The notes under the pieces were generated by a model, which had not been told where the DNA came from, did not search any database, and saw nothing but the letters and a program-made list of their open reading frames with translations. The position numbers were made by a program, and so were the translations under genes. This document shows, in pieces, positions 3,450-62,718 of a stretch of DNA of 64,000 nucleotides (position 1 is its first letter; each line of letters opens with the position of its first letter). Source of the stretch: Amoebidium appalachense (taxonomy: Eukaryota; Protista; Ichthyosporea). The DNA is taken from contig CAVNZM010000011.1 of NCBI GenBank assembly GCA_963693365.1, positions 4,658,639 through 4,722,638 of the forward strand, written 5' to 3'.

Positions 3450-5077
3450 ACCTTCCTCTGGTGGTACCACATATCCCCATCCACGTTGAAGATTCCATCT
3501 CCAAGTAGCTCCTCAAAGATCATGTGGAAACGTGGGCCCTTGACATAGTTTTCAAACCGCGTCTTTTGCACTGCACCAACCAATGGAATTGATTCGTTAA
3601 TGACATGTATAAAACAGGTATAGCTGTAACCAATGAAATTGATTCGTTAGTGACTTGTTCTAAACAGGTAGAGCTGTAGCAAATGGGATTAGATGCAACC
3701 ACTGTTAAGGATTCGTTACAGATTTCTAAAAATAGCGCGTGTTTTGCACTGCACCAACCGATGGAATTAATTCGCTAGTGACGTGTTAAAACAGGTATAT
3801 ATAGCTGTGGCCGATGGAAATGGAGCTGCAACCCTGAGAAGAATTCGTTGCTGCCTACTAAAAATAGACAAAGCTGCAACCAATCAAAAAATCCTTTTTC
3901 ATGCACGTTAATCCTAGGCTCTAGCGTGTTTTCCTGACATTTAGTCTTTTGAATCAACGCTTTGAGCTTACATAGTGCCTGAAATCAATCATTGAATATT
4001 ATTTTCAGCTAATGTATGTATGCCCACGAACGGGTGCATTTTCATTCAGCCTTTTCAAAGCCCCAGATTGATCTCATTACAAATCCTAAACAACCAACAG
4101 ACGTGGTTTGGTATTGAGTATTTCCTTTTTATCGTGAGCGCGTGTGCGCGCAGAGCCACATAACGGGCATGCACACATCCGTGCACGAACAAGCACACAC
4201 ACACGAACATGCGCACACACAAGCACAAGCACATGCACATGCACACACACATTATTGTGATGCGGGAACAGCAGACAGGGAGAGAGAATAATCGCGTAGG
4301 GTATAGGAAAGGCGGAAATAGGGGAGGGAGGACGGGTGAACAAATGGGGTAGCAGGAAGAAGGGGGGGGGGGGGGGGGGGGGGGACTTCCTTTTTTTGTT
4401 TTTTTTTGTTTTTTTGTTTGGGGGGGGGGGGGGGGGGGGGGGTGCTCACCGTGCTCGATGTTTGCTGGGTCAGCGGTGACGACGGTAGGGGGCTGGGATG
4501 ATGTTGGTGTTAGCCAATCAGAGAGAGACATTATGATTTTATTCACCAATCAGACAAAGTTACGATGTTTTTATAACGCTATACGCATGGAATGTGCACC
4601 CTATTTGTGGTCCAATTTGTATTCATAGCTTTAGGTAAAGTGAGAGTAGACTGTGGGGCAGTCTGTAAACCGACAGGCAGTGGGGAAGGTTGTGTGTGTG
4701 TACGGAGGGGGAGATGGGGGGAGAGGGGGGGGGGGGGGGGGGGAAGAGGAGGAGGCAGCCTGGCAGGGACCGAGATGATGCATGATCGTAGAATGGTATC
4801 GTGGTGGCCCAGGAACAAAGCGTGTGAGGTGATCAAGTACGGGGGAAAAGGAGAGAGGTGAGAGGGAAACAAAATTAACTCGGATGTGGAGATGAACGGA
4901 ACGGCTTTGAGCAGCTGGTGTGATGTGTGTGTGTGTGTGCACTAACTATTGGTGTAGGTATGAGGGTGTGTGTGTGGGGGGGGGGGGGGGGGAGGGGGGA
5001 GGGGGGGGGGGGGGGGGGGGGAGGGATGGAGGGTCCCTGCCAAAGCCATCATCGGATATGTGTATGTGTGTGTGTGA

Positions 5078-10013: not shown

Positions 10014-11570
10014 ATGAAGCTTGCGGGGGTTGCGCTTGTGGCGGTCGCAGCCACGGGCGTAGATGGCGGCTGTCCGTTTGCCCTGCGGTTTCCAACAAAC
10101 AACGGTAGGTCTATTCAATTGATAAATCGGGCTTGCATATGTGTGGGGAGAAGGGGACGAAGTAGATGGAGGAAGAGGGATGAAACGATGGCGGGGGAAA
10201 ACCGGCGCCAGGCCAGAAACGATTCTGGAAGATGTGGTGCTGGGTAGAAACGAGGCCGGGGCAAATTTTTGGATCCCGTAGAGGGCTAAAAGTTAGGAAG
10301 CAAGGGCCGCCAGCCACATTGCTTCTACTGAGGGCGCTCATGGCTTTTTGCTGCCCAGAACAACGTGCACGTATTGCTGTGTCATCGTGAAGATTATTGC
10401 GACATCGCCACACACCACAAGCACATGTACACGGATACTCAGCACAAAACAACACCAAGACACACCTTGAATTGGCCCACACAAGTAAACAAAAGACTTA
10501 CCATGTCTCCTCTTTTCTCTCCTGTGAGATCGGCATTGACATGGTAGTAAGTCACTTAGCAAGTCACTTGGTACATGCGGATTTCCTACGGGTATACACC
10601 GACACGGGAAGAGAGCGGCTGGCGGGGGTGCTCACCTCCTTGTTCGTTAGTGCCACCGGTGGATGTGACCGGGGAGAGAGAGGGGGGGGGGGGGGGGGAG
10701 GGGGGGAAGGGGGGAGGGGCCAGGAAAAGAAGGGCTGTCTGTACTTGAACATTGTTTTCTCACTGCCCTTACCGGCACTAAAAGGGTTAAGCACGTAAAT
10801 GACACATACCACCCACAGGTGTGTGCAACAACGTAAAAGATGAATTCCTCGGGGCAAAGGGGACACAGTACAATAAGTTCGGAACAACCCCTCGCCTGAC
10901 CACATTCTCGAGTTTTGGCCGTGAAAATCCCCGGGTTATCAGCAACATGATTTTCCAACACCCCCCCGGGGATTTGCCTGACCAGCGTGGTCTCACTCAT
11001 TTATGCATGCAGTGGGGTCAGTTTATGGATCATGGTATAGAACCCCTCCCCCCTCCCCTTCCAAGATATATTTTTCGCCATTCATGTTTCATGACCGTGT
11101 CAATTTTGACGAGTCATGATATGCACATCCGCCAGAAAACCGCATACTTTTTTCTGAGACTGAGAAGGGCACACAGGTGCGCGCATTCACACACACACAC
11201 ACACACACTCACATTCACATTCGCACACACACACACACATGCCCAAAAAGAATGGGGTGGGTGCGTTCGTGTGTGTGTGTGTGTGTTGGGGGGGGAGGGG
11301 GGGGGGGGAGGGAGGGAGGAGCACCCATTTAGCCATCACCACATCATGGGTGGCTGAAATGGGCCGACCGGATGACTATCCGTGTTTTTGTGTCGAAACA
11401 GCACGCCATATGGTATGGATTATTTTAATGGGGTTTAAGCTCTATAGTCCTACACTACAGAAACACATAGTATTTTAAATGGCACGCCCCTCACCCTTCT
11501 TGGCATGCATAGCATGAGCATTAAGAATTTTGGTTCCCCTTTGTGTGCTAATCTCCCCTTCCTCCCTCCC

Positions 11571-11601
<31 letters not shown>

Positions 11602-12416
11602 TTCACGGCTTAAATTGTTTATTTTGGGTTTCTCACTTTTGTGACGTTTTGTTGTTGTTCTTTGTTGTCTCCTCCATATTTCCAACCCTCTAACGCAAAC
11701 ATCACCCCCCCCAACACCCCCCTAACCTCCACCCAAAACAACAGGAAAACAAACAAAAAGAAACTCTTGCTGATAATGGCACAACTAAACCCGAATTTAA
11801 CCATCTCTTCCCTCACTCCCCTCCCCCCCCCCCCCCCCCCCCCCCCCCCCAAACACACGGACACACACACACACACCCTCCCCCCAGATGTAACGCTGAC
11901 GCCCGTACCTGTGGATGTTCGAGAGGACATTCCAGTGATCGACCACGAGAGTGAGCTGAGGTTTAAGCCGGATGCCAAGGCCGGGCGTAAGATTGCATTC
12001 ACCCGTGCAAAGGGTTTTGACAAGGATGAGATGCAGAACGACATCACACACTGGATTGATGCGTCCACTGTGTACGGCTCTGATGATGGTAACCCACCCC
12101 CCCCCCCCCCCCCCCCCCCCCCGCACCCCCGCACCCCGCCCCGCCTCGGTGTTTTCTAAGTGTACAAATGGTGTTTTAGATTTCGTTTTTTCGATTATTC
12201 AGTTTTTTACTAACGTCCTGTGATACACCGCCGCCATTGAGTGTGCACTAATGTAGAATAACCTCTGATTTAAGCAACTGAACGGTTATAGTTCAAATAA
12301 GTGAACAAGTAACCTGGTGGATTGTTTGCTTCCTGACCATCCCACACCCTACCCCATCTGCCTGCCATTACCGCCGGAACAGGATGCATTCTGGATGTAA
12401 CAAACTTGTACCACAG

Positions 12417-12486
<70 letters not shown>

Positions 12487-13342
12487 GCGCCTCCTGCAAA
12501 CAGAAACACAAAAGCACATGTACAATCAAGCACGTCCACGGAGCCACACACTCACACACACTCGCACTCGCACTCACACAGACACTATGTTTTATGCTAA
12601 AATCTTTCATTACACACGCAAAAAAAAAAAAAAAAAACCAAAAAAAAAAACAACTCTCTCCATGACACCCAACCCCACCCAACTCCGCGACCACCACCAC
12701 CTCCTCCTTTTTCCTTTTCCATCCCATCACACCCACTTCACTTACATGCTACCCACCCACCTTTTTTCCTTCTTTTTTTTTTTTTCCTCACAGACCAACT
12801 TGCACTTCTTCTCGAGGAGGGAACCGCCAAGTTGAAAGTCGACGCATTTGGAAATATTCCAAAGAACCCCATCACGGGTGAAGCTCTGGCAGGAGACACG
12901 CGTGCAGACGTGCAGCCCGGCCTGTCGTCGGTGCATACAATGTTCATGAGGGAACACAATCGATTGGTGGATATTATCACAAAGGTATGTGGTCATCAAC
13001 CGTATATGGTTATTTTTGTGTGGGTATGGTGGCTGTATCTTGGGCATAGTTTGTTAATGAGGGAGCACAACCGATTGGTGGATATTATCACAAAGGTATG
13101 CGCTGATTAACCATATATGGTTAGTTTTTTTGGTGACTGCTGTTACAAATGCAATGGATTATTGTTTCTGGTTAGTTGCTTATGTTTGGATGTGGTTGGC
13201 TGTTTTGGAATCTTTATGTACACAACCGTGCATGTTTCGGTTTTGCTGCTTCCGTCAGCATCCCCCCCCCCCCCCCCCCCCCCCCCTTCATTCCTCAGTT
13301 CTCGTTCCCTTGTTTCTCGAATAAGGAACACAAAGCCGACCG

Positions 13343-13392
<50 letters not shown>

Positions 13393-13932
13393 CATACACA
13401 CACACACGGCATACACATGTGGGAGAGCGATTGCATACACGTACATGAAGACAGACAAGGGTCACCACTACCTCACAAGGACCCACGCACATGCATTCTT
13501 TGCCCACCTATCCCCCCATCCACATCTATATCACAGCGCTGAAACCCTCCCTCCCTCCCCCCCCGAAAGCTCACCACTTACACATCCATATCTTCTTCTC
13601 CTTCTTCTTCTCCGCCCACCACCACCTGCTTTCCACCCAACACACACACACACACACACCTACACGTACAGGACGAGCTGAGCACCAACACGGAGTGGAC
13701 CTTCCAGCTTGCACGCCTGATCGTCCAATCAGAAATCCAACGCATCACGTGGGACCAATGGCTGCCCGCCCTTTTGGGGGGTCGTATTGAGGAGCTGCCC
13801 TACAACCAGACCCACAACCCCGGAGTCTATCGTGCGTTTGCTGGTGCAATCTTCCGCACGGGGCACAGTCTGGTATGTTCTGGAATATTCCCATGGTGTT
13901 GCGGATGAGGGAGTTGGGGGGGGGGGGTGGAA

Positions 13933-13971
<39 letters not shown>

Positions 13972-14134
13972 GGCGTGTGTGTGTGTGTGGGGGCGGAGGG
14001 GGGGGGGAGATGGAGGGACTGCGTTTGGGTGCCGCTCCCCCCGCCTCCCGATCCCCGCAACAGCATATAAGATAGAGAGATCATAGAAAATGGGCATACA
14101 CATGCAATCACACATTTGCTCAAACACAGACAAA

Positions 14135-14196
<62 letters not shown>

Positions 14197-15328
14197 GCGC
14201 GCACACGCGCAGTCACAAACACACAATCATGTTGTCGGTTCCCAAGGTTACGACTCTGTCATCAACATAGACCTTCTCTTAACCCTTTTTATCATTTTTG
14301 CTATCTCCTTTAACCCGTTTTAACCCTTCGTTTTACCCGTTTCGGATCATCGAGCATTTTGGCCTGTACAACCACATCCAATTCAAGGCCTCGTGTGAAC
14401 ATAACCCTTTAACCCTTTCAAAAACTCCTCTGACTCTTTTTAACCCTTATTTTAACCCCTTTCAGATCATGGAGCATTTTGACCTGTACAACCACACCCT
14501 CTTCAACGAGACCAGCAAGACCTATGCCGAAATCAAGCCCCCCTTCATTCTTAAGGATTCCTTCCACCACGACCAGCTCCGATTGGAGCGATTGGGCGGT
14601 CAGATCGAACCGGTGCTGATCGGGTTGTTCACCCAGCCAGCAGAGAGGATGGACAATTTCATTATTGATTCCATGCGCAACAACCTGTTTGTGTATGCAT
14701 CCCCCCCCCCCCCCCCCCCCCCCCCCTCCCCCCACCCCCCTCCAACAAAAAAAAACTCTGAAAAAAATCAAATAAAAATTGAAACAAAACAAAATTTTGG
14801 CACGTGCTTTGCCTTGTGTTGGTTGTTGCAGATTTCGAATCCGTGCTCTGTAGCCTAACACATCAGAGTCTCATTTGAATCTCATATTCACGGAATAACC
14901 GTTTATTCAATCTCACCTGGAAATTCCCTGGGGTCCAACAGCAAACAGTTCAATTTCGGCAGCAACTTCACCGAAGCCCTCGACATTGTCACAATTAACA
15001 TCCAGAGAGGCCGCGACCTCTCCCTCAACGACTTCCGCACATTCAAGGCTCAGGTGGAGGGGGTCGTGATCAACAAATGGTCCGATCTCACGAAGAACAT
15101 CGATTTACGTCGACGCCTGCGTAAGCTATACAACAACAGGTTGGACAATATCGATCTGTTTGTCGGGGTTCTTTCCGAAGATCATGTCGGGGGGTTCCGG
15201 GCACGTCCATGCCCCCTACCCTGAGATCAGCTTGGATCAACCAATGGGGTCAGCTGCAGCGCGCCGATCGGCTGTGGTTCCGCACGCACCTTCCTAAAGT
15301 GGTAGGTGGCACGTGCGCGCGCGCGCGC

Positions 15329-15370
<42 letters not shown>

Positions 15371-15416
15371 GAGGAAAAAAGAGGGGACGGGTGGGTGGGC
15401 GGGTGGTGGTGGTGGT

Positions 15417-15483
<67 letters not shown>

Positions 15484-17190
15484 CGAGAGATGGAGGAAGG
15501 AGAAAGGCACCCCGGGACAATATGTGATCTTGCATGTGATGGTGTTTGGATGAGGGGAGAGGGGGCGCCCGTGGGGGGGGGGGGGGGGGGGGGGGGAGGA
15601 ATAGTGCTCAATGCGGTGGTGGTGATGGTGGGGGGGGGGGGGGGGGGGAGGAGGGAGGGGGGGGGGGGGTTCAGCATGCTTGAACAACGAACACTATATT
15701 ACGCAGAGAAAGGGAGCAGCTCATCAAACATTCATATTGAAAGCAACCAACACACAATGAAATTTCAGAACTTCAGATGCAAGGTGTCAATGCAGATATT
15801 CTTCAACTGCAGAAAACATAAATTCACACACGTTTGAAATTTCCAGATGCCGCTGCTGTGTGCCAACCCCAAGGCCGCACGCATCTGCCGGATCATGGAC
15901 GGTCTTCTGAAGGGCACCTTTGGCCTTGCTGACGTCATTCGGGCCAACACTAAGATCCCCTGGGTCCCCGACAACCCGTTTGTCCGTCCTGGCTTTGAGC
16001 GTTTCCACACCAAGTACGGAATCCCCCCCCCCCCCCCCCCCTCTCATGCTGCATGTACTTCGTGTATGCTTTGCGATTATTTCTCACTGTTGTCCGTCAT
16101 GAATGTGTGCTTTGGGTACTCTATAATGCACCAAACCCACCTGTCCTTCTTTTTCCACCAGGGAGCTCCATTGGCCCTTTCGTGTGCATAAAGCACGAAA
16201 ACAAGACGCCCTAAAGCGAGTGTTCTGCTGTGTAATTTTTGTGCTTCATACTGTGTGCCACTCCCCCCCCCCCCCCCTCACCCCCTCCCCCCTCCCCCCT
16301 CTCCCCCCCTGGGGCCTCCCCATACATTTTCATCCCCCCCTCCCCCCCCCCCCCCCCAAAAAAAAAAAAAACAAACAAACAAAAAAAAAAACACACACAC
16401 ACACACAAACACCCTCACACCCGCACGAATTTCAAAAACATACGCGGTCCGAAAACAAGCTCACAAAAAAACTTACGCCATATCCTCCACCGCTGACACG
16501 TAAATCTCCGCAGCCTGCCGATCATCAAGCAGATTGAGCGCAAGCCCGATGTTCGCATCCCCACATACGACCCCAAGGATGATGAAGAGGATACCTCCAT
16601 CGCCATCGCCTCAGCAAATGAGGAGGGTATGTTACCCCCCCCCCCCCCCCCCCCCCCCCTCCCCACAGACCACTGTGTGGAGACATCTTTACTTCCATGC
16701 AACCGGGCATGGTTGCTCTGTGTCGTGCATCTGTAAGCACATACGCGTTTGTCGCTGCACTGCATTAGTTTGCACATACATCTTCACCGTTTTGCTCACC
16801 TTGCTTGCATAAGCAACCCTGCTCGTCTTTGATCAAGACGGGTTGACCCACCCAAGTTCAGTTGATGCTGCTGTCTGAGTTGGAGCGTCGTATATACGCG
16901 GGCTAAGGGGTCGAAACTCAGACGCAATTGATGACTTGGGCCCTCCCTGAGGATGGGCTCTGCTTATGACGCATACTGTGCGCATGGCTGATGCTGCATA
17001 CTTGAATGTTTGCCTTTGCATGTGTCCTGCACCATGCTTCTCATCGTGTATGCGTACTTCGTACTGTGTTCCGCATTCAAAACCCCCCCCCCCCACCCCC
17101 CCACACACACACGGGCGGACTGGCCCAAGAAAAGAAAAAAGCCCCTCCCGGAAGTTTTGACATGCCCACACACTCACTCACTCACTCAAT

Positions 17191-17235
<45 letters not shown>

Positions 17236-18729
17236 TTCCCCTTTCCCACCCTTTATCCCAGTATCCCAGGAATCTCCCTTTTCCCCTTCCCTCCCCTCTC
17301 TCCTTACTCTCCCCCTTGCATTTTTCAATGAGGAAATCGTGAAAAAGCCCACCAAACGAAGCAAAGGAGAAATCATTCCAACCCTGCAGTAAGCATGACA
17401 ACCTCATGGTTTACATAGCACGAGCACCCAATAAGCCCTAGTTTTGGCTACCATATAAGCTGTTGCTAACCTTCTTTTACCCCCCCCCCCCCCCCCCCCC
17501 CCCCCCACCCACCCACCCACCCCTCACCCCCCAACCCCACCCACCCACACCCACCACCACCACCACCACCGCCCCCTTGGCCTCCACCCCCGCCCCGACA
17601 CACACGTACACGCACACACGTACACGCACAGTCGAGGAAGACGCCACAGATCTTCCCCCGGGTGACTCGTGCGGCACCGCCTCCTGCTCTTTCTTTGGTT
17701 TCTGCAACCGCGCCGCCACCCCCGCTACGTGCTCATGTCTCAGCGGTTTCCTCCCGGGCACGGCCGAAAACACGTGCACACAGTGCAAAAATCTCATGCG
17801 GAACGGAAACTTTGAGCTTCCGCGGCTCAACCAAGGCAACGACCAATCGAAGAACTGGGCTCTGGTCGGACCCGGCTTCGTACCTGCCTGGCAGACGACG
17901 GACTCTGCGTTTGAGATTTGGACCAACACTACCAGCCCGGATGTTGCTGTCTTCGCAGGCAACCAGATGATTGAGATTTCCGCTCTGCGTCGCCGTGCGT
18001 CTGTCTATCAGGTATACTTGCATTCTTTCCCCCCCTCCCCCCCGGGCTTGCCCCGACCCGCCCTTCCTCTCTTCCTCAGCCATCCTTTTCATTGATACTG
18101 TATTGTGGGGCATTTGTGCTCTTTTTAGCCAACAGGCCATCGCCTCCTAATGACGAAGTTCACCTGTTGAACAATTACTCTAACCAAAACTCAACGAGCA
18201 AGCTTGTTTGTTCACATTCGGCCGTCTCATATCTCTAATCCAATATTACAATCATCATCTGCTTCTGGTCGATTTACTGATGCAGATCGTCGACACCAAC
18301 CCACTCTTTCTTTTCCATGAGTCTCAATCTTTTTAAAAACAATCTAATTGATGTTTTTTTTTTTTTTTTTTGCTTAATCTTTTTAACAACACAATCTAAT
18401 TGTTTTTTTTAAAAACACTACAGGTGGTCGACACCAACCCAGGCGACAAGCTCGTCCTTCGCTTCTCCCACCGCGGCCGCGAGGGCGAAGACACGCTCCG
18501 CGTGCACGCAGGCACCAACACCGACCTTAAGGTGATCGGGGAGTTCAAAACAGGCACAACTTGGCGCCGTTACGAGATTAAATATACGGTTCCCGACAAG
18601 CAGACGGCAACACGATTTGTGTTCCAGGGAAGCGCAGCCACCACCCCGGCGTGTGGAGATAAAACCGATTGCAAAATTGCGCGCGGTAACTTCCTGGATG
18701 CGGTGACGCTCATGCCTGAGGGGTGCTAA
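10014..18729 (+). CDS. Secreted animal-type heme peroxidase (peroxidase-cyclooxygenase superfamily) with C-terminal EGF-like and DUF642/CBM-like jelly-roll domains; 11 exons, one apparent frameshift
   Basis: Exons 10014-10104, 10820-11034, 11888-12088, 12794-12984, 13672-13872, 14466-14692, 14942-15301, 15847-16013, 16514-16626, 17632-18011, 18424-18729, all GT-AG and phase-compatible. Motifs: signal-peptide-like N-terminus, NGVCNN, WGQFMDHD (distal Q/H), ITHWIDASTVYGS, GDTR, FMREHNRL, FRTGHSL (proximal His), INIQRGRD, IDLFVG, ADRLWF; then a Cys-rich EGF-like segment and NLMRNGNFE...GNFLDAV. The frame changes at the G6 run 15189-15194. Confidence 0.92.
16807..17082 (+). mobile_element. Intronic structured repeat family (k-turn SINE-like), full-length copy, tail type A
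   Basis: GCATAAGCAACCCTGCTCGTC...GGGTCGAAACTCAG...GGATGGGCTCTGCTTATG...CTTCGTACTGTGTTCCGCATTCAAAA then poly-C; homologous to copies at 30335, 30737, 32298, 54026, 59513 and 60238. Confidence 0.85.
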
Positions 18730-19582
18730 GTTTTAATGAAGGGTTGTGATTGGGCGGAGATAAGAATGGAATGGAAGGTAGGCGGATAGGTGGAATGGGT
18801 GGTAGTGTCATTAATTTTGCCATTAATTTAGTCGGGTGCTTTGATTTAAGGGAATGACGGAGGAGGGGTTCCTTTGAATTTTCTAGAGCGTTACGTATCT
18901 TGTGTAACTTTAACTTCCTTGGCAGTTTCCCTGTCTTGATGATTATGGTTCTGTCACGGTATAAGCTTAATTAAACTTATATGTAACAGTAACTGTTGTT
19001 ATCACGTAGAATTTTTTATTTTTTGGTCAACGTGGACTCCAGCCTCGACGGCTGATTGAAGCCGTCTGGTTCACAACTGCCAAATCTCTTGCTGGTTACA
19101 AAACAGATCATATACAGGCCTTTTCATCATATACAAGCCCCACAAATCACATTATCTTTTTTTGCGATACTAACAATTATTTATGTACACCTGTTACTAG
19201 TTATCTGCTGATCAATAACACAGGTGCGTGTTTAGTTCTTTCTCAGATATAGCTGCTGTATCTATCCAGCAGTGAGACATTTGGCTAAAGATAGCAATAA
19301 ATTGGTGGCCTCCCAGTGTGGCGAGTCGTTTACAAATTCCCAATATCCCCCCACCCACCCCACCCCCCCACCACCACCATCACACACACACAGAGGCACC
19401 ACAAACTCAGGGGTATACATGCTGTTCGTAAACTGTTGCAATCCCCTCCTTGCCCTTCTCCCAACACGTGTAACATGTGCCACGGTGTTCAAACGTTTAA
19501 TGATTGGCACAATGGCACAAGCACACAGCTTTTGCAAGTGTCACAGTCTCATGCTGGTTCCATGCGGTCCCGTAAATACAAG

Positions 19583-22905: not shown

Positions 22906-22971
22906 ACATGCACACACACACACGAAAAAAAAAAAGAAAAACCAAAAACCAAAGAAAAGAAAAAGTACCCC

Positions 22972-23002
<31 letters not shown>

Positions 23003-23031
23003 ACGCGCGACGTGCCCGGCGTCGTGTGTGT

Positions 23032-23062
<31 letters not shown>

Positions 23063-23366
23063 GGGGAGCAGCGCACCACCAGCCTTTCGTTTTGCCCCTC
23101 CGGCCACCATACAACATATACTGGCATATCGCGTCTCATGTTGGCCCAACTTTATTCATGTACAGTACCGGGAGAAATTAATGAAACCATCCTCTACATT
23201 CCTTGCAGTTCAATCGAATTGATTAGAACCCCTTCCCCCCCCCCCCCCCCCCCCCCCCCTCCCTTCCTCCCTTCCTCCCGCCCCTCCTCCCCCATCCCCC
23301 CAAAACAAAAACAACAACAACAACAACTAACACACGCACAAAAAATTCTTCCCCTTCTCCCTTTCA

Positions 23367-27251: not shown

Positions 27252-33672
<6,421 letters not shown>

Positions 33673-35896: not shown

Positions 35897-35992
35897 ACGT
35901 TTGCCTTCTGGTTCTGCAGCTGCTACTGCGCACTCACGTGCACGTTTGGCCGCAAACCTAACCATATTGCGTTTTGTCAATCACCCGATCAC
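35897..35992 (-). pseudogene. Decayed tandem copy of the 3' end of the adjacent terminal exon
   Basis: CGTTTGCCTTCTGGTTCTGCAG...TTGCGTTTTGTCAATC duplicates about 36019-36111, with substitutions, an indel and an in-frame stop. Confidence 0.8.
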
Positions 35993-36013
35993 AACCGAAT
36001 CTCAATCAAATTT

Positions 36014-36221
36014 TCACGCGTTTGCCTTCTGGTTCTGCAGTTGCTGCTGCGCGCCCTCATGCCCGTTGGCCGCCAACCTGATCATGTTGCGTTTTGTCAA
36101 TCGCCTAATCACCGTGGCCCTCTCCTGCATGGTCAGCTCGGCCCAGTTTGTGATGTACTGGAGGGACCCGTCTGATTGGACAACCATAGGGCCCATGTGG
36201 TCAAGAAGGATGGATTCCCCG

Positions 36222-39555: not shown

Positions 39556-46735
<7,180 letters not shown>

Positions 46736-46874: not shown

Positions 46875-47864
46875 GGGGGGGGGAGGGGGGGGGGGGTTCC
46901 TGCGATTGGCACGTGTCTTGTATCAGCGGGAGTTGCCGGCAAACCAAAAGCTGGTGTTGCAATTTTTGACGTGTACAAAGTTTAGTTTTCCTTTTTGTGT
47001 GTTTGCCACTTCCATTTATTTATTTTTTTCATTCATTTGTTTTAATTTTTTTTTTTTTTTTTTTTCCCACATCCCCCCGGCCCAATCTTCCCCCGCTTTC
47101 CCCCTGCCTAAATGGTCTGTGGGAGTGTATGCCTGGTATGGTACTGCAAGTGGTCTAGCAAAATGTATTGTGGTGGTGCTGGTTCGCTACCATTTCTGAA
47201 TCAGATAATCAGTGCAAACAAATGAAATCAACGTTCATGATATTAATAACATTCTCAGCCTGATTTGGATTTTTCCATCTTAAATCCACACTACGTCGAT
47301 GACTGATTGTCAAGCGCGTAGTCATTGCCAAAAGAAAAAAAACTAAATAAATCAAGCAAACCCACAAAAAAAAAAAAAAAACGAGTGAGGGAGACCTAGA
47401 GAAAGAAAGATTGCACTGTGGGACATCGGGTAGGCAGCTATTGATTATTATATACAAGGTTAAAGTTGGAATTTATATAAGAGCTGACGTATAAGCCGAA
47501 GTTAAGGGAATTAAGGAAAACATGCATGTCCGACCGGTTTATTGTACATCCACGTGGCTTAAGCTTACATACATGTACATATGCATAGGTCTGTAGAGCT
47601 CTGGGCTATATATTTTGTGGGCTTGTCTAGAAACTTGCCACAGAGCAGCAAAAAATAATTGCGAGGACAAAAGAAAAAAAGTGGGGCGGGGGGGAAGTAA
47701 TTACCCTGCGCCGCCATGGCTGGCGGCTGAAGCGCGTATACGAAAGAAAAGGGGCAGGGGAGGGGGGGAAAGGAAAGGAAGGAAGAAAAGAAAGAAAGAA
47801 AGAAAGAAAAAAAGAAAAAAAAAAAAAAAGAACGGAAGGTTTGCACCCCTGCGTCGGGGGCCAT

Positions 47865-47936
47865 AGGGACCAGCCAGATTCGAACTAGCGACCTATCGGG
47901 CTGCAACCGATTGCTCTACCACTGAGCTATAGCCCC
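47865..47936 (-). tRNA. trnC: tRNA-Cys (anticodon GCA)
   Basis: rc GGGGCTATAGCTCAGTGGTAGAGCAATCGGTTGCAGCCCGATAGGTCGCTAGTTCGAATCTGGCTGGTCCCT: full cloverleaf, A and B boxes, U discriminator, oligo-T about 35 nt downstream. Confidence 0.96.
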
Positions 47937-48736
47937 TTCCGATGCCATATGAGGATTTTCGAGCTATTTATCATAACCATCGCCGCCCGCAAACATTTGA
48001 AGATAGCTGTGCATGCGCATGCGCAGTGGCACTTCCAGATACATTCAGTTTACTGTAATATGAATAGCTCCAATCAGTTTATTATAATTACGTTGAGCTC
48101 TTGCTTCTATTTATTGCCTATGATTGCAAACGACACAACAACTAAAGGTTTGCTATGTAACTTTGATACTGCACATACATATACATGAACTTCGTAAAAC
48201 ATGGGAGGCTTTCAGCACAAATTTATTGTTCAACCTCAGCTAACCAGCTTCAACCAAATCCTCCTTTCCCACACTAACTTCTGAAATTACATTTTAAGTT
48301 TTAAGTTATAGAGTATATAGACATCACTAATTTTCAATTCACCTCCAACCACTGTGTCCTATCAATATCCTCGGAGACTACATTGAGTCAACCGTTCAGC
48401 TTCCTCGATTGGTACTTTTAGATTACTTTCATATCCACAACCTCTTCTTCACACCATTATCATGTCCCCCCCCCCCCCCCCCCCCCCCCCCCAACACCTC
48501 ACCCCACCCTTCGCGCATAGAAAAGTAAAGACGAGAACAGAAAATAAAAATAGATCACCCTAGAAAACCCACAGAACCAATCAGATCCCAAGGGAGGGGA
48601 CCAACACGCGGCATATCTTTGCTCCATGCTCCGCTATCCGCAGCCACACATATTTGAGCAAAAACTTACCATCCACTCATATCCACCTTTTGAAGCCCAC
48701 GTTACCACTTCATAGATTTAATGTTTACAGATTTGC

Positions 48737-62718
<13,982 letters not shown>

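Follow-up and report, generated by a model that had tools for sequence, protein, structure and literature searches.

A family of short repeats in the 64,000-nt stretch of DNA analysed here (the window) carries an RNA domain that is predicted to form a four-way junction, in which a long hairpin is bent at a kink-turn and closed by a pseudoknot. The repeat is very probably a retroelement that targets runs of C; its copies lie mostly in introns, and the element is very abundant. The reading favoured here, to which a probability of about one half is given for the account as a whole, is that of a non-coding passenger of a Chlamys-type Penelope-like retrotransposon (PLE), whose kinked and pseudoknotted domain would be recognised by the partner reverse transcriptase (RT). 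That the partner is Penelope-like is probable when taken by itself. Judged by comparison with Rfam families, the repeat would be a known kind of element with an apparently undescribed RNA fold. Statements cited to published work below refer to passages of the papers named.

The window is intron-rich eukaryotic DNA with many C and CA runs, by which a general repeat search was swamped. Among 148 open reading frames chosen by composition, Pfam matches were obtained for a haem peroxidase (+), a PDZ domain (+), an enoyl-CoA hydratase (−), the RNase PH family (+) and an ABCC transporter (−). At 10800–18730 (+), an animal haem peroxidase domain appears to be followed by exons with EGF-like and possible carbohydrate-binding domains, which would be an unusual architecture. 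Tandem repeats of about 86 nt (41952–42201) and about 70 nt (50400–50783) were also observed, as were local duplications of 65–114 nt overlapping or adjoining exons (3558–3867, 12933–13123, 14305–14506 and 35898–36112).

Four homologous copies reported in the first-pass annotation (at 16807, 30335, 30737 and, on the reverse strand, 54333) were confirmed at 76–83% identity (BLAST E 1e-9 to 1e-47), and further copies with the common 3′ part were found within the window by BLAST and nhmmer. The 12 clear copies measure 48–412 nt (median about 131.5 nt, boundaries set by eye) and together make up 3.1% of the window; they share their 3′ end in register and are cut at differing points on the 5′ side. 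Subfamily A is represented by a copy of about 415 nt (16670–17084, +) composed of a 137-nt leader, the structured domain, a tail and a C run, in an intron with a donor at about 16626. Subfamily B comprises a 5′-truncated copy (30341–30562, +) in intron 30190–31224 of the RNase PH-family gene, a decayed copy with a short leader and several broken pairs (30704–30984, +), and a copy in an intron of the ABCC transporter gene (54026–54333, −) with an expanded internal C run and an intact predicted 8-bp pseudoknot. Three A-type copies are 5′-truncated, starting within P3 (60239–60402, −, also decayed), at P4 (59513–59636, −) and at the C run of P4 (32293–32431, +), and one more truncated copy starts at P4 (36578–36687, −). 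The 3′ tail alone is present at 32472–32535 (+), 40 nt behind the 32293 copy, at 52589–52650 (−), at 54361–54428 (−), immediately in front of the 54333 copy, and at 54861–54908 (−). Two pairs of copies in the window are adjacent.

A C5 run begins no more than 13 nt from the end in all 12 clear copies, against a background of 0.02–0.21 per position, and the letter before the terminal Cs is A in 12 of 12 and AA in eight. A tail profile was made from these 12 hand-picked copies, which it recovers by construction; it gave four additional weaker matches in the window (E 7e-5 to 0.06), matches with E above 2 (n = 2) being left out, and insertion at a C run was seen in three of those four. Weak, old-looking remnants of the family tail were noted at 16088–16130, 16239–16261, 40192–40221 and 59745–59786, and suggest that many intronic C runs may mark former insertions of the family. 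Copy 30335 is bordered on both sides by a 15-nt target-site duplication (TSD; left 30326–30340, right 30563–30577, +), with microhomology at its 5′ end. Nine copies lie in gene spans, six inside Pfam-matched spans and three inside inferred ones, and all nine are in sense orientation. Since C10+ runs in six gene spans are themselves biased towards the sense strand (109 sense versus 23 antisense, or 109/132), the orientation of the copies needs no RNA function. The 5′ truncation points gather at the element's internal C runs (32293, 36687, 59636 and 30704), where there is microhomology with the target. In copy 54333 this internal run, in the last hairpin of the domain, has grown to about 70 nt (54135–54205). 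The last ~45 nt of copies (17038–17081, 30520–30561 and 54861–54905) hold a possible terminal stem-loop around a conserved GTACTTCGTAC-type word; its sequence changes keep pairing, and folding z was −2.4 in one tail-only copy, −1.1 in A and −0.1 in B.

Contigs from four of 24 listed sequencing runs were compared with the A stretch, and contigs from four runs with the B stretch. One contig of the low-coverage run X17 follows the 16807 copy over 16752–17045 with 2 differences in 294 nt, and another follows the 30335 copy with 2 differences and 1 gap in 228 nt; near-identical contigs at such coverage indicate that the two copies represent abundant subfamilies, A and B. The A stretch is covered from 16670 to 17074 (9,135 contigs from run X5), and subfamily A starts about 137 nt ahead of the structured domain. 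Subfamily B has a different, short leader that follows five Cs, and in one B contig a further 530 nt lie upstream of 30341, which may belong to a longer B master or to another element whose 3′ end precedes the copy. Summed contig depth in X4 was about 4–8e5 on the B copy versus 4–8 on the unique spacer behind it (four runs compared), a quantity that is not a copy number and comes from runs (X4, like X5) that may be the window's own source. Head-to-tail arrangements were each represented by one contig: in X17 an A tail is linked to an A start with 51 nt between (coordinates read by hand), and in X13 a contig jumps back from 17023 to 16695. The element is present in contigs of X12 and X13, which are guessed to be RNA runs and, as contigs, do not give RNA ends or levels. 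Runs X10, X11 and X17–X20 (organism labels C, D and E) contain 62–76% of sampled words of the A stretch, and comparison of X17–X19 with that stretch gave near-consensus contigs, from the same species in mixed samples or from a relative.

These data change the placement of the domain. It had been described as the 5′ head of the repeat and as a stand-alone ncRNA that was amplified later; neither description is supported, as the A cover begins at about 16670 and the B contig continues 530 nt upstream, which makes the domain internal. The ~165-nt domain ends about 85–115 nt from the common 3′ end, and thus lies near the 3′ end of a retroelement that is truncated on its 5′ side and inserted at C runs.

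In subfamily A the structured domain (16809–16967, +) is predicted to consist of P1 (16809–16815/16961–16967), P2 (16822–16842), P3 (16851–16940) and P4 (16941–16957). The closing stem P1 proposed in the first-pass annotation is whole in two of the four copies; 30335 is truncated at 30341 and the 5′ strand of 54333 is mutated. P3 is the long hairpin and contains the predicted kink-turn (16861–16931, +), with a bulge at 16861–16863, tandem G.A/A.G pairs of 16864–16865 with 16930–16931, a third pair U.U, a −1 pair A-U and a fourth pair G.U. The corresponding letters were found exactly as reported at 30373–30384/30434–30442, and likewise in copies 16807 and 54333, with the predicted kink-turn of the 30335 copy at 30375–30380/30438–30440 (+). 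The third pair is A.G in the B type, and L3 is U in three of the four copies. Standard kink-turn letters are present in all four copies and a strict descriptor is passed by three, decayed copy 30737 failing it; the descriptor is also present in 17–28% of dinucleotide shuffles, so support for the kink-turn comes from conservation between the subfamilies. An alternative register with the bulge on the 3′ strand was rejected as it fits copy A alone.

A pseudoknot that the first reading had missed is predicted between the P2–P3 linker and the 3′ side of the P3 far loop, in A between 16844–16849 and 16908–16913 (16844–16913, +) and in the 30335 copy between 30358–30364 and 30416–30422 (+). It has 6–8 bp, all in one register, with 7 contiguous pairs in 16807, 7 in 30335 and 8 in 54333, and with one pair broken in 30737. 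Shuffling of the duplex energies gave p = 0.034 (16807), 0.016 (30335), 0.002 (54333) and 0.83 (30737), the per-copy values (0.002–0.06 in three copies) not being independent of each other. There is a single compensatory swap, from C-G to U-A in 30335. At 16850, a variant that is common among the reads (39% of X5 depth) would replace the mismatch flanking the pseudoknot by a wobble. The MFE fold of A holds a rival local pairing for the far loop. An RNA helix rises by 2.8 Å per bp. With this rise and an angle of 50 degrees at the kink (PMC5061560), the 9-bp and 14-bp arms were estimated by hand to end about 30 Å apart, a gap that a 6–8-bp helix with its linkers can span, and the predicted kink and pseudoknot thus explain each other.

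The whole domain was unremarkable in folding energy in two of three copies tested (z +0.14 and −0.14, both of subfamily B), and copy 16807 exceeded its shuffles on both strands (z −2.28 on + and −3.45 on −). The long hairpin alone was significant in 16807 and 30335 (z −3.4 and −3.9) and not in the two decayed copies (z −1.1 and +0.2). It had been claimed that the G-U wobbles of the inner helix work on the host-sense strand only; this strand argument held for 30335 (−27.9 versus −9.9 kcal/mol) and failed for 16807 (z −3.36 versus −3.48). As had also been claimed, the inner helix keeps its pairing despite changed sequence: P3 and the pseudoknot comprise 30 pairs, of which 11 differ between 16807 and 30335; in nine of these 11 both copies can still pair, and pairing is preserved in every one of the five double changes between A and B (null p 2.5e-5 to 1.4e-3; co-location p 0.012), which supports co-variation of the helices across two lineages. 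Two exceptions are unpaired in A, namely a C.A beside the kink and the last pseudoknot position. When the four rows were aligned, 91% of cells paired, against 32–40% in slid registers, and five double-changed pairs were reached by 2 of 500 shuffles, such counts not being probabilities. The kink core (GA, GA and L3), whose conservation relative to its neighbours had been put forward in the first-pass annotation as a test, is identical between A and B at 5/5 positions versus 4/17 neighbouring ones (Fisher p 0.005; GA/AG alone p 0.017). Because the four rows are related, represent effectively two lineages and are the same rows on which the structure was drawn, this covariation is suggestive and no substitute for R-scape. 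Read variation (1 of 15 variable places in 72 core nt, about 2.7 expected by hand count) does not discriminate.

In published rules for kink-turns, a −1 pair A:U, G at 3n of the third pair and a fourth pair (4b:4n) G:U favour ion-induced folding in Mg2+ (PMC8191799), by which the B kink-turn would be predicted to fold in ions; the C.A mismatch near the kink of A and its U.U third pair fall outside the ratings in the passages of that paper. An A.G third pair is found in 60% of SAM-I kink-turns versus 0.03% of those of U4 (PMC5061560). Given this pair and the pseudoknot contact, the kink-turn looks like a self-folding architectural element rather than a Snu13/L7Ae site.

The lack of an Rfam match was borne out. 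At gathering thresholds, Rfam models matched only tRNA-Cys in the window, where a tRNA-Cys(GCA) gene lies at 47864–47937 (−), and at E up to 10 nothing credible was obtained over three of the four copies (54333 being compared at gathering thresholds only). A covariance model of the four copies, as suggested in the first-pass annotation, strongly found only those four in the window; its next matches (E 0.008–0.04) were at 45188 and 22944–23095, of which 45188 lies in a long inverted repeat unrelated to the element (45109–45383; 133 nt, arms 92% complementary, 9 nt between; MITE- or hairpin-like). Pattern scans for relatives produced no match among the metagenome or viral contigs searched. A canonical hammerhead was not found in the element by Rfam or by a check for core motifs. 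On the element's strand, no match was obtained for box C/D snoRNA, U3 or U4 at E up to 10, and these were rejected. A SECIS element has a RUGA core, an 11–13-bp helix and an apical AA; A reads UUGA, its helix is 14 bp and followed by GG, and no Rfam match was obtained. HDV-like ribozymes have the nested order P1-P2-P3-P1.1-P4 and a catalytic C in J4/2; in the element the would-be 5′ strand of P1 follows P2, there is no local P3, B lacks the C, and Rfam gave no match. Penelope-like RTs are the closest relatives of telomerase, whose RNA has a template some 1.5 repeats long and U-A triple loops in its pseudoknot; in the element only a 6-nt repeat-like word lies between P1 and P2, U-A triple loops are absent, and copy number is high. 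Likenesses to U1, U2, U3, 7SL, 28S rRNA, retron ncRNA, telomerase RNA and HDV-like ribozymes were dropped, as they had no model match or the wrong helix order.

The closest resemblance in behaviour is to Chlamys PLEs, which target (C)n, are truncated at the 5′ end, are accompanied by non-autonomous partners in many head-to-tail copies and for the most part have no hammerhead (PMC8557442), and whose new insertions are all intronic with a median of 128 bp (PMC9977147). The non-autonomous forms MRC1 and Chlamys-N4_cRei share with the element the (C)n target, the intronic location and 5′ truncation to about 130 nt (PMC8557442, PMC9977147), as well as the absence of a hammerhead and, to judge from single contigs, possibly head-to-tail units (PMC8557442), and by eye two autonomous (C)n-targeting Chlamys consensi end, like the element, in AA and a C run. 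Both the expected insertion site, at (C)n or (CA)n, and the expected pattern of cut 5′ ends with a common 3′ end were found in the present copies, the latter in 12. Chlamys-type is the best match on account of the shared (C)n ends, 5′ truncation, lack of a hammerhead and intronic insertions of ~130 nt, together with the possible head-to-tail joints. The link to Chlamys is made by insertion behaviour alone: a motif search gave no sequence likeness, four of five short element motifs having no match in the Chlamys/Naiad consensus supplement of PMC8557442 and the other, an 11-mer, matching once inside apparent coding sequence. No structured RNA domain is described for Chlamys in the passages of PMC8557442, and the host here is not evidently a green alga, the best matches of one ABCC exon being 46% identical and from early-diverging fungi and Physarum. 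Neither an RT nor a GIY-YIG match in Pfam was found among the 148 frames chosen by composition in the window.

On this account, the partner endonuclease would nick a (C)n tract, and the RNA would be copied from its 3′ end, often incompletely and sometimes head to tail. With the 50-degree bend, the loop at the far end of the 14-bp arm would come to lie against the foot of the 9-bp arm and be locked there by 6–8 bp. The compact domain might then bind the partner protein, as the 3′UTR pseudoknot does in vertebrate R2; this is the most tentative of the three steps. The most likely role of the domain is template recognition by the partner enzyme; alternatively, it may have a stabilising or a translational function within the pseudo-LTR.

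The repeat could also be a SINE, or the 3′ UTR of a LINE that is not a PLE, with priming at C runs and with the domain as the recognition signal of the LINE protein. We consider this rather unlikely. The clean 15-nt TSD with 5′ microhomology fits LINE or SINE insertion equally well, and the 530-nt upstream continuation of the B contig, the weak 3′-terminal stem-loop and the precedent of a structured 3′UTR in R2 (PMC12180492) are consistent with it. The element nevertheless lacks a poly(A) tail, and head-to-tail units with (C)n targeting are known from Chlamys (PMC8557442). A Pol III SINE was rejected: there is no A box near either 5′ start, B-box-like 9-mers occur about as often as by chance (the true 5′ end of B being uncertain), and no tRNA, 5S or 7SL match was obtained in the element. 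With a Penelope-like partner retained, the domain could instead be a self-cleaving ribozyme with an undescribed fold, taking over from the hammerhead the cutting of tandem transcripts into single units. It sits near the 3′ end, where the hammerheads of PLE pLTRs are placed; Chlamys and Naiad mostly lack these (PMC8557442). Head-to-tail joints are seen in single contigs, the predicted fold is a compact one with a pseudoknot, and its kink-turn is of a type that should form with ions alone. In A, the order GG, hairpin, C-N-R-A and pseudoknot strand resembles HDV-like ribozymes. On the other side, no Rfam ribozyme family was significant (best Hammerhead_1, E 4.2), the hammerhead stem II joining the core motifs is absent, the C of the HDV-like motif is missing from B copies, the helix order is unlike HDV, and the 5′ truncation points gather at internal C runs and do not mark a single cleavage site. 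A self-cleaving ribozyme of a new class in (C)n-targeting PLEs, in a eukaryotic lineage without reported elements of this kind, is held to be unlikely.

The first-pass annotation had favoured a host ncRNA that forms a Snu13/L7Ae RNP and was captured by, or copied as, a retroelement. Its standard kink-turn, with L3 as U in three of four copies and a U.U third pair in A, its closed four-way junction and the contigs in runs guessed to be RNA would suit such an origin, which we nonetheless regard as quite improbable: the domain is internal with leaders that differ between A and B, there is no match in Rfam or in the viral and metagenome collections, the sense bias is accounted for by the C-run target, and kink-turns that are architectural and free of protein typically have an A.G third pair (PMC5061560). 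It would be more improbable still that the hairpin is real while the kink-turn and pseudoknot are accidental and the structure has no selected role. The frequency of the kink descriptor in shuffles (17–28%), the whole-domain z near 0 in B copies and the comparison of two lineages only are in keeping with accident; the five of five pairing double changes, a core fixed amid changed neighbours and a pseudoknot register that suits the bend argue against it. The passenger of a Chlamys-type PLE stays the preferred account.

Parts of the predicted fold recur in other RNAs. The SAM-I riboswitch has a long helix kinked by a standard kink-turn with an A.G third pair, and its far loop docks elsewhere (PMC5061560). 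In the element, by contrast, the loop would pair with a linker 5′ of its own hairpin, there is no Rfam match or evidence of a ligand pocket, and the RNA belongs to a eukaryotic repeat. The pseudoknot-hinge-stem of the vertebrate R2 3′UTR is pseudoknotted, lies near the 3′ end of a target-primed retroelement and is recognised by protein (PMC12180492), a function that would be shared here by analogy. The R2 pseudoknot lies within the last 65–68 nt, whereas the present domain ends 85–115 nt from the 3′ end; the R2 target is rDNA, and no kink-turn is mentioned in the passages of PMC12180492. The SECIS of Naiad PLEs has a kink-turn-type core in the 3′ part (PMC8557442), and B reads GUGA...GA; unlike a SECIS, the element has no apical AA beyond the helix, uses its loop in the predicted pseudoknot and matched no Rfam SECIS model, and in A the base ahead of UGA is not a purine. 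A GA kink-turn motif in a retroposon RNA is known from the BC1/ID SINE, which differs in its tRNA-derived 5′ domain and role in dendritic transport, with no pseudoknot mentioned in the passages of PMC1978531.

In the literature searched (mostly open-access and largely by titles and abstracts), such elements were not seen to be described as having a kink-turn or pseudoknot domain. For Penelope-like elements with a kink-turn or pseudoknot, none of the best 25 of 465 matches mentions Penelope-like in title or abstract; for kink-turn, retrotransposon and SINE, no such element appeared by title or start of abstract among the matches listed; and for Penelope-like, pseudoknot and pLTR, the one paper checked concerns an ORF1 frameshift in the passages seen. 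No paper was found on an HDV-like and k-turn ribozyme in a retrotransposon, or on the guessed host genus together with 'Penelope'. Retrozymes are among the related literature (preprint 10.64898/2026.07.22.740005).

An in vitro system has been named as the next task (PMC8557442). A compact, covarying domain in an abundant passenger would provide a defined substrate for testing how PLEs choose their template and what substitutes for the hammerhead in Chlamys and Naiad. Should the partner prove to be an ordinary LINE, the domain would still be an undescribed recognition fold in a poly-C-targeting retroposon. With the predicted fold, eukaryotic mobile elements would gain an example of an architectural kink-turn like those of riboswitches.
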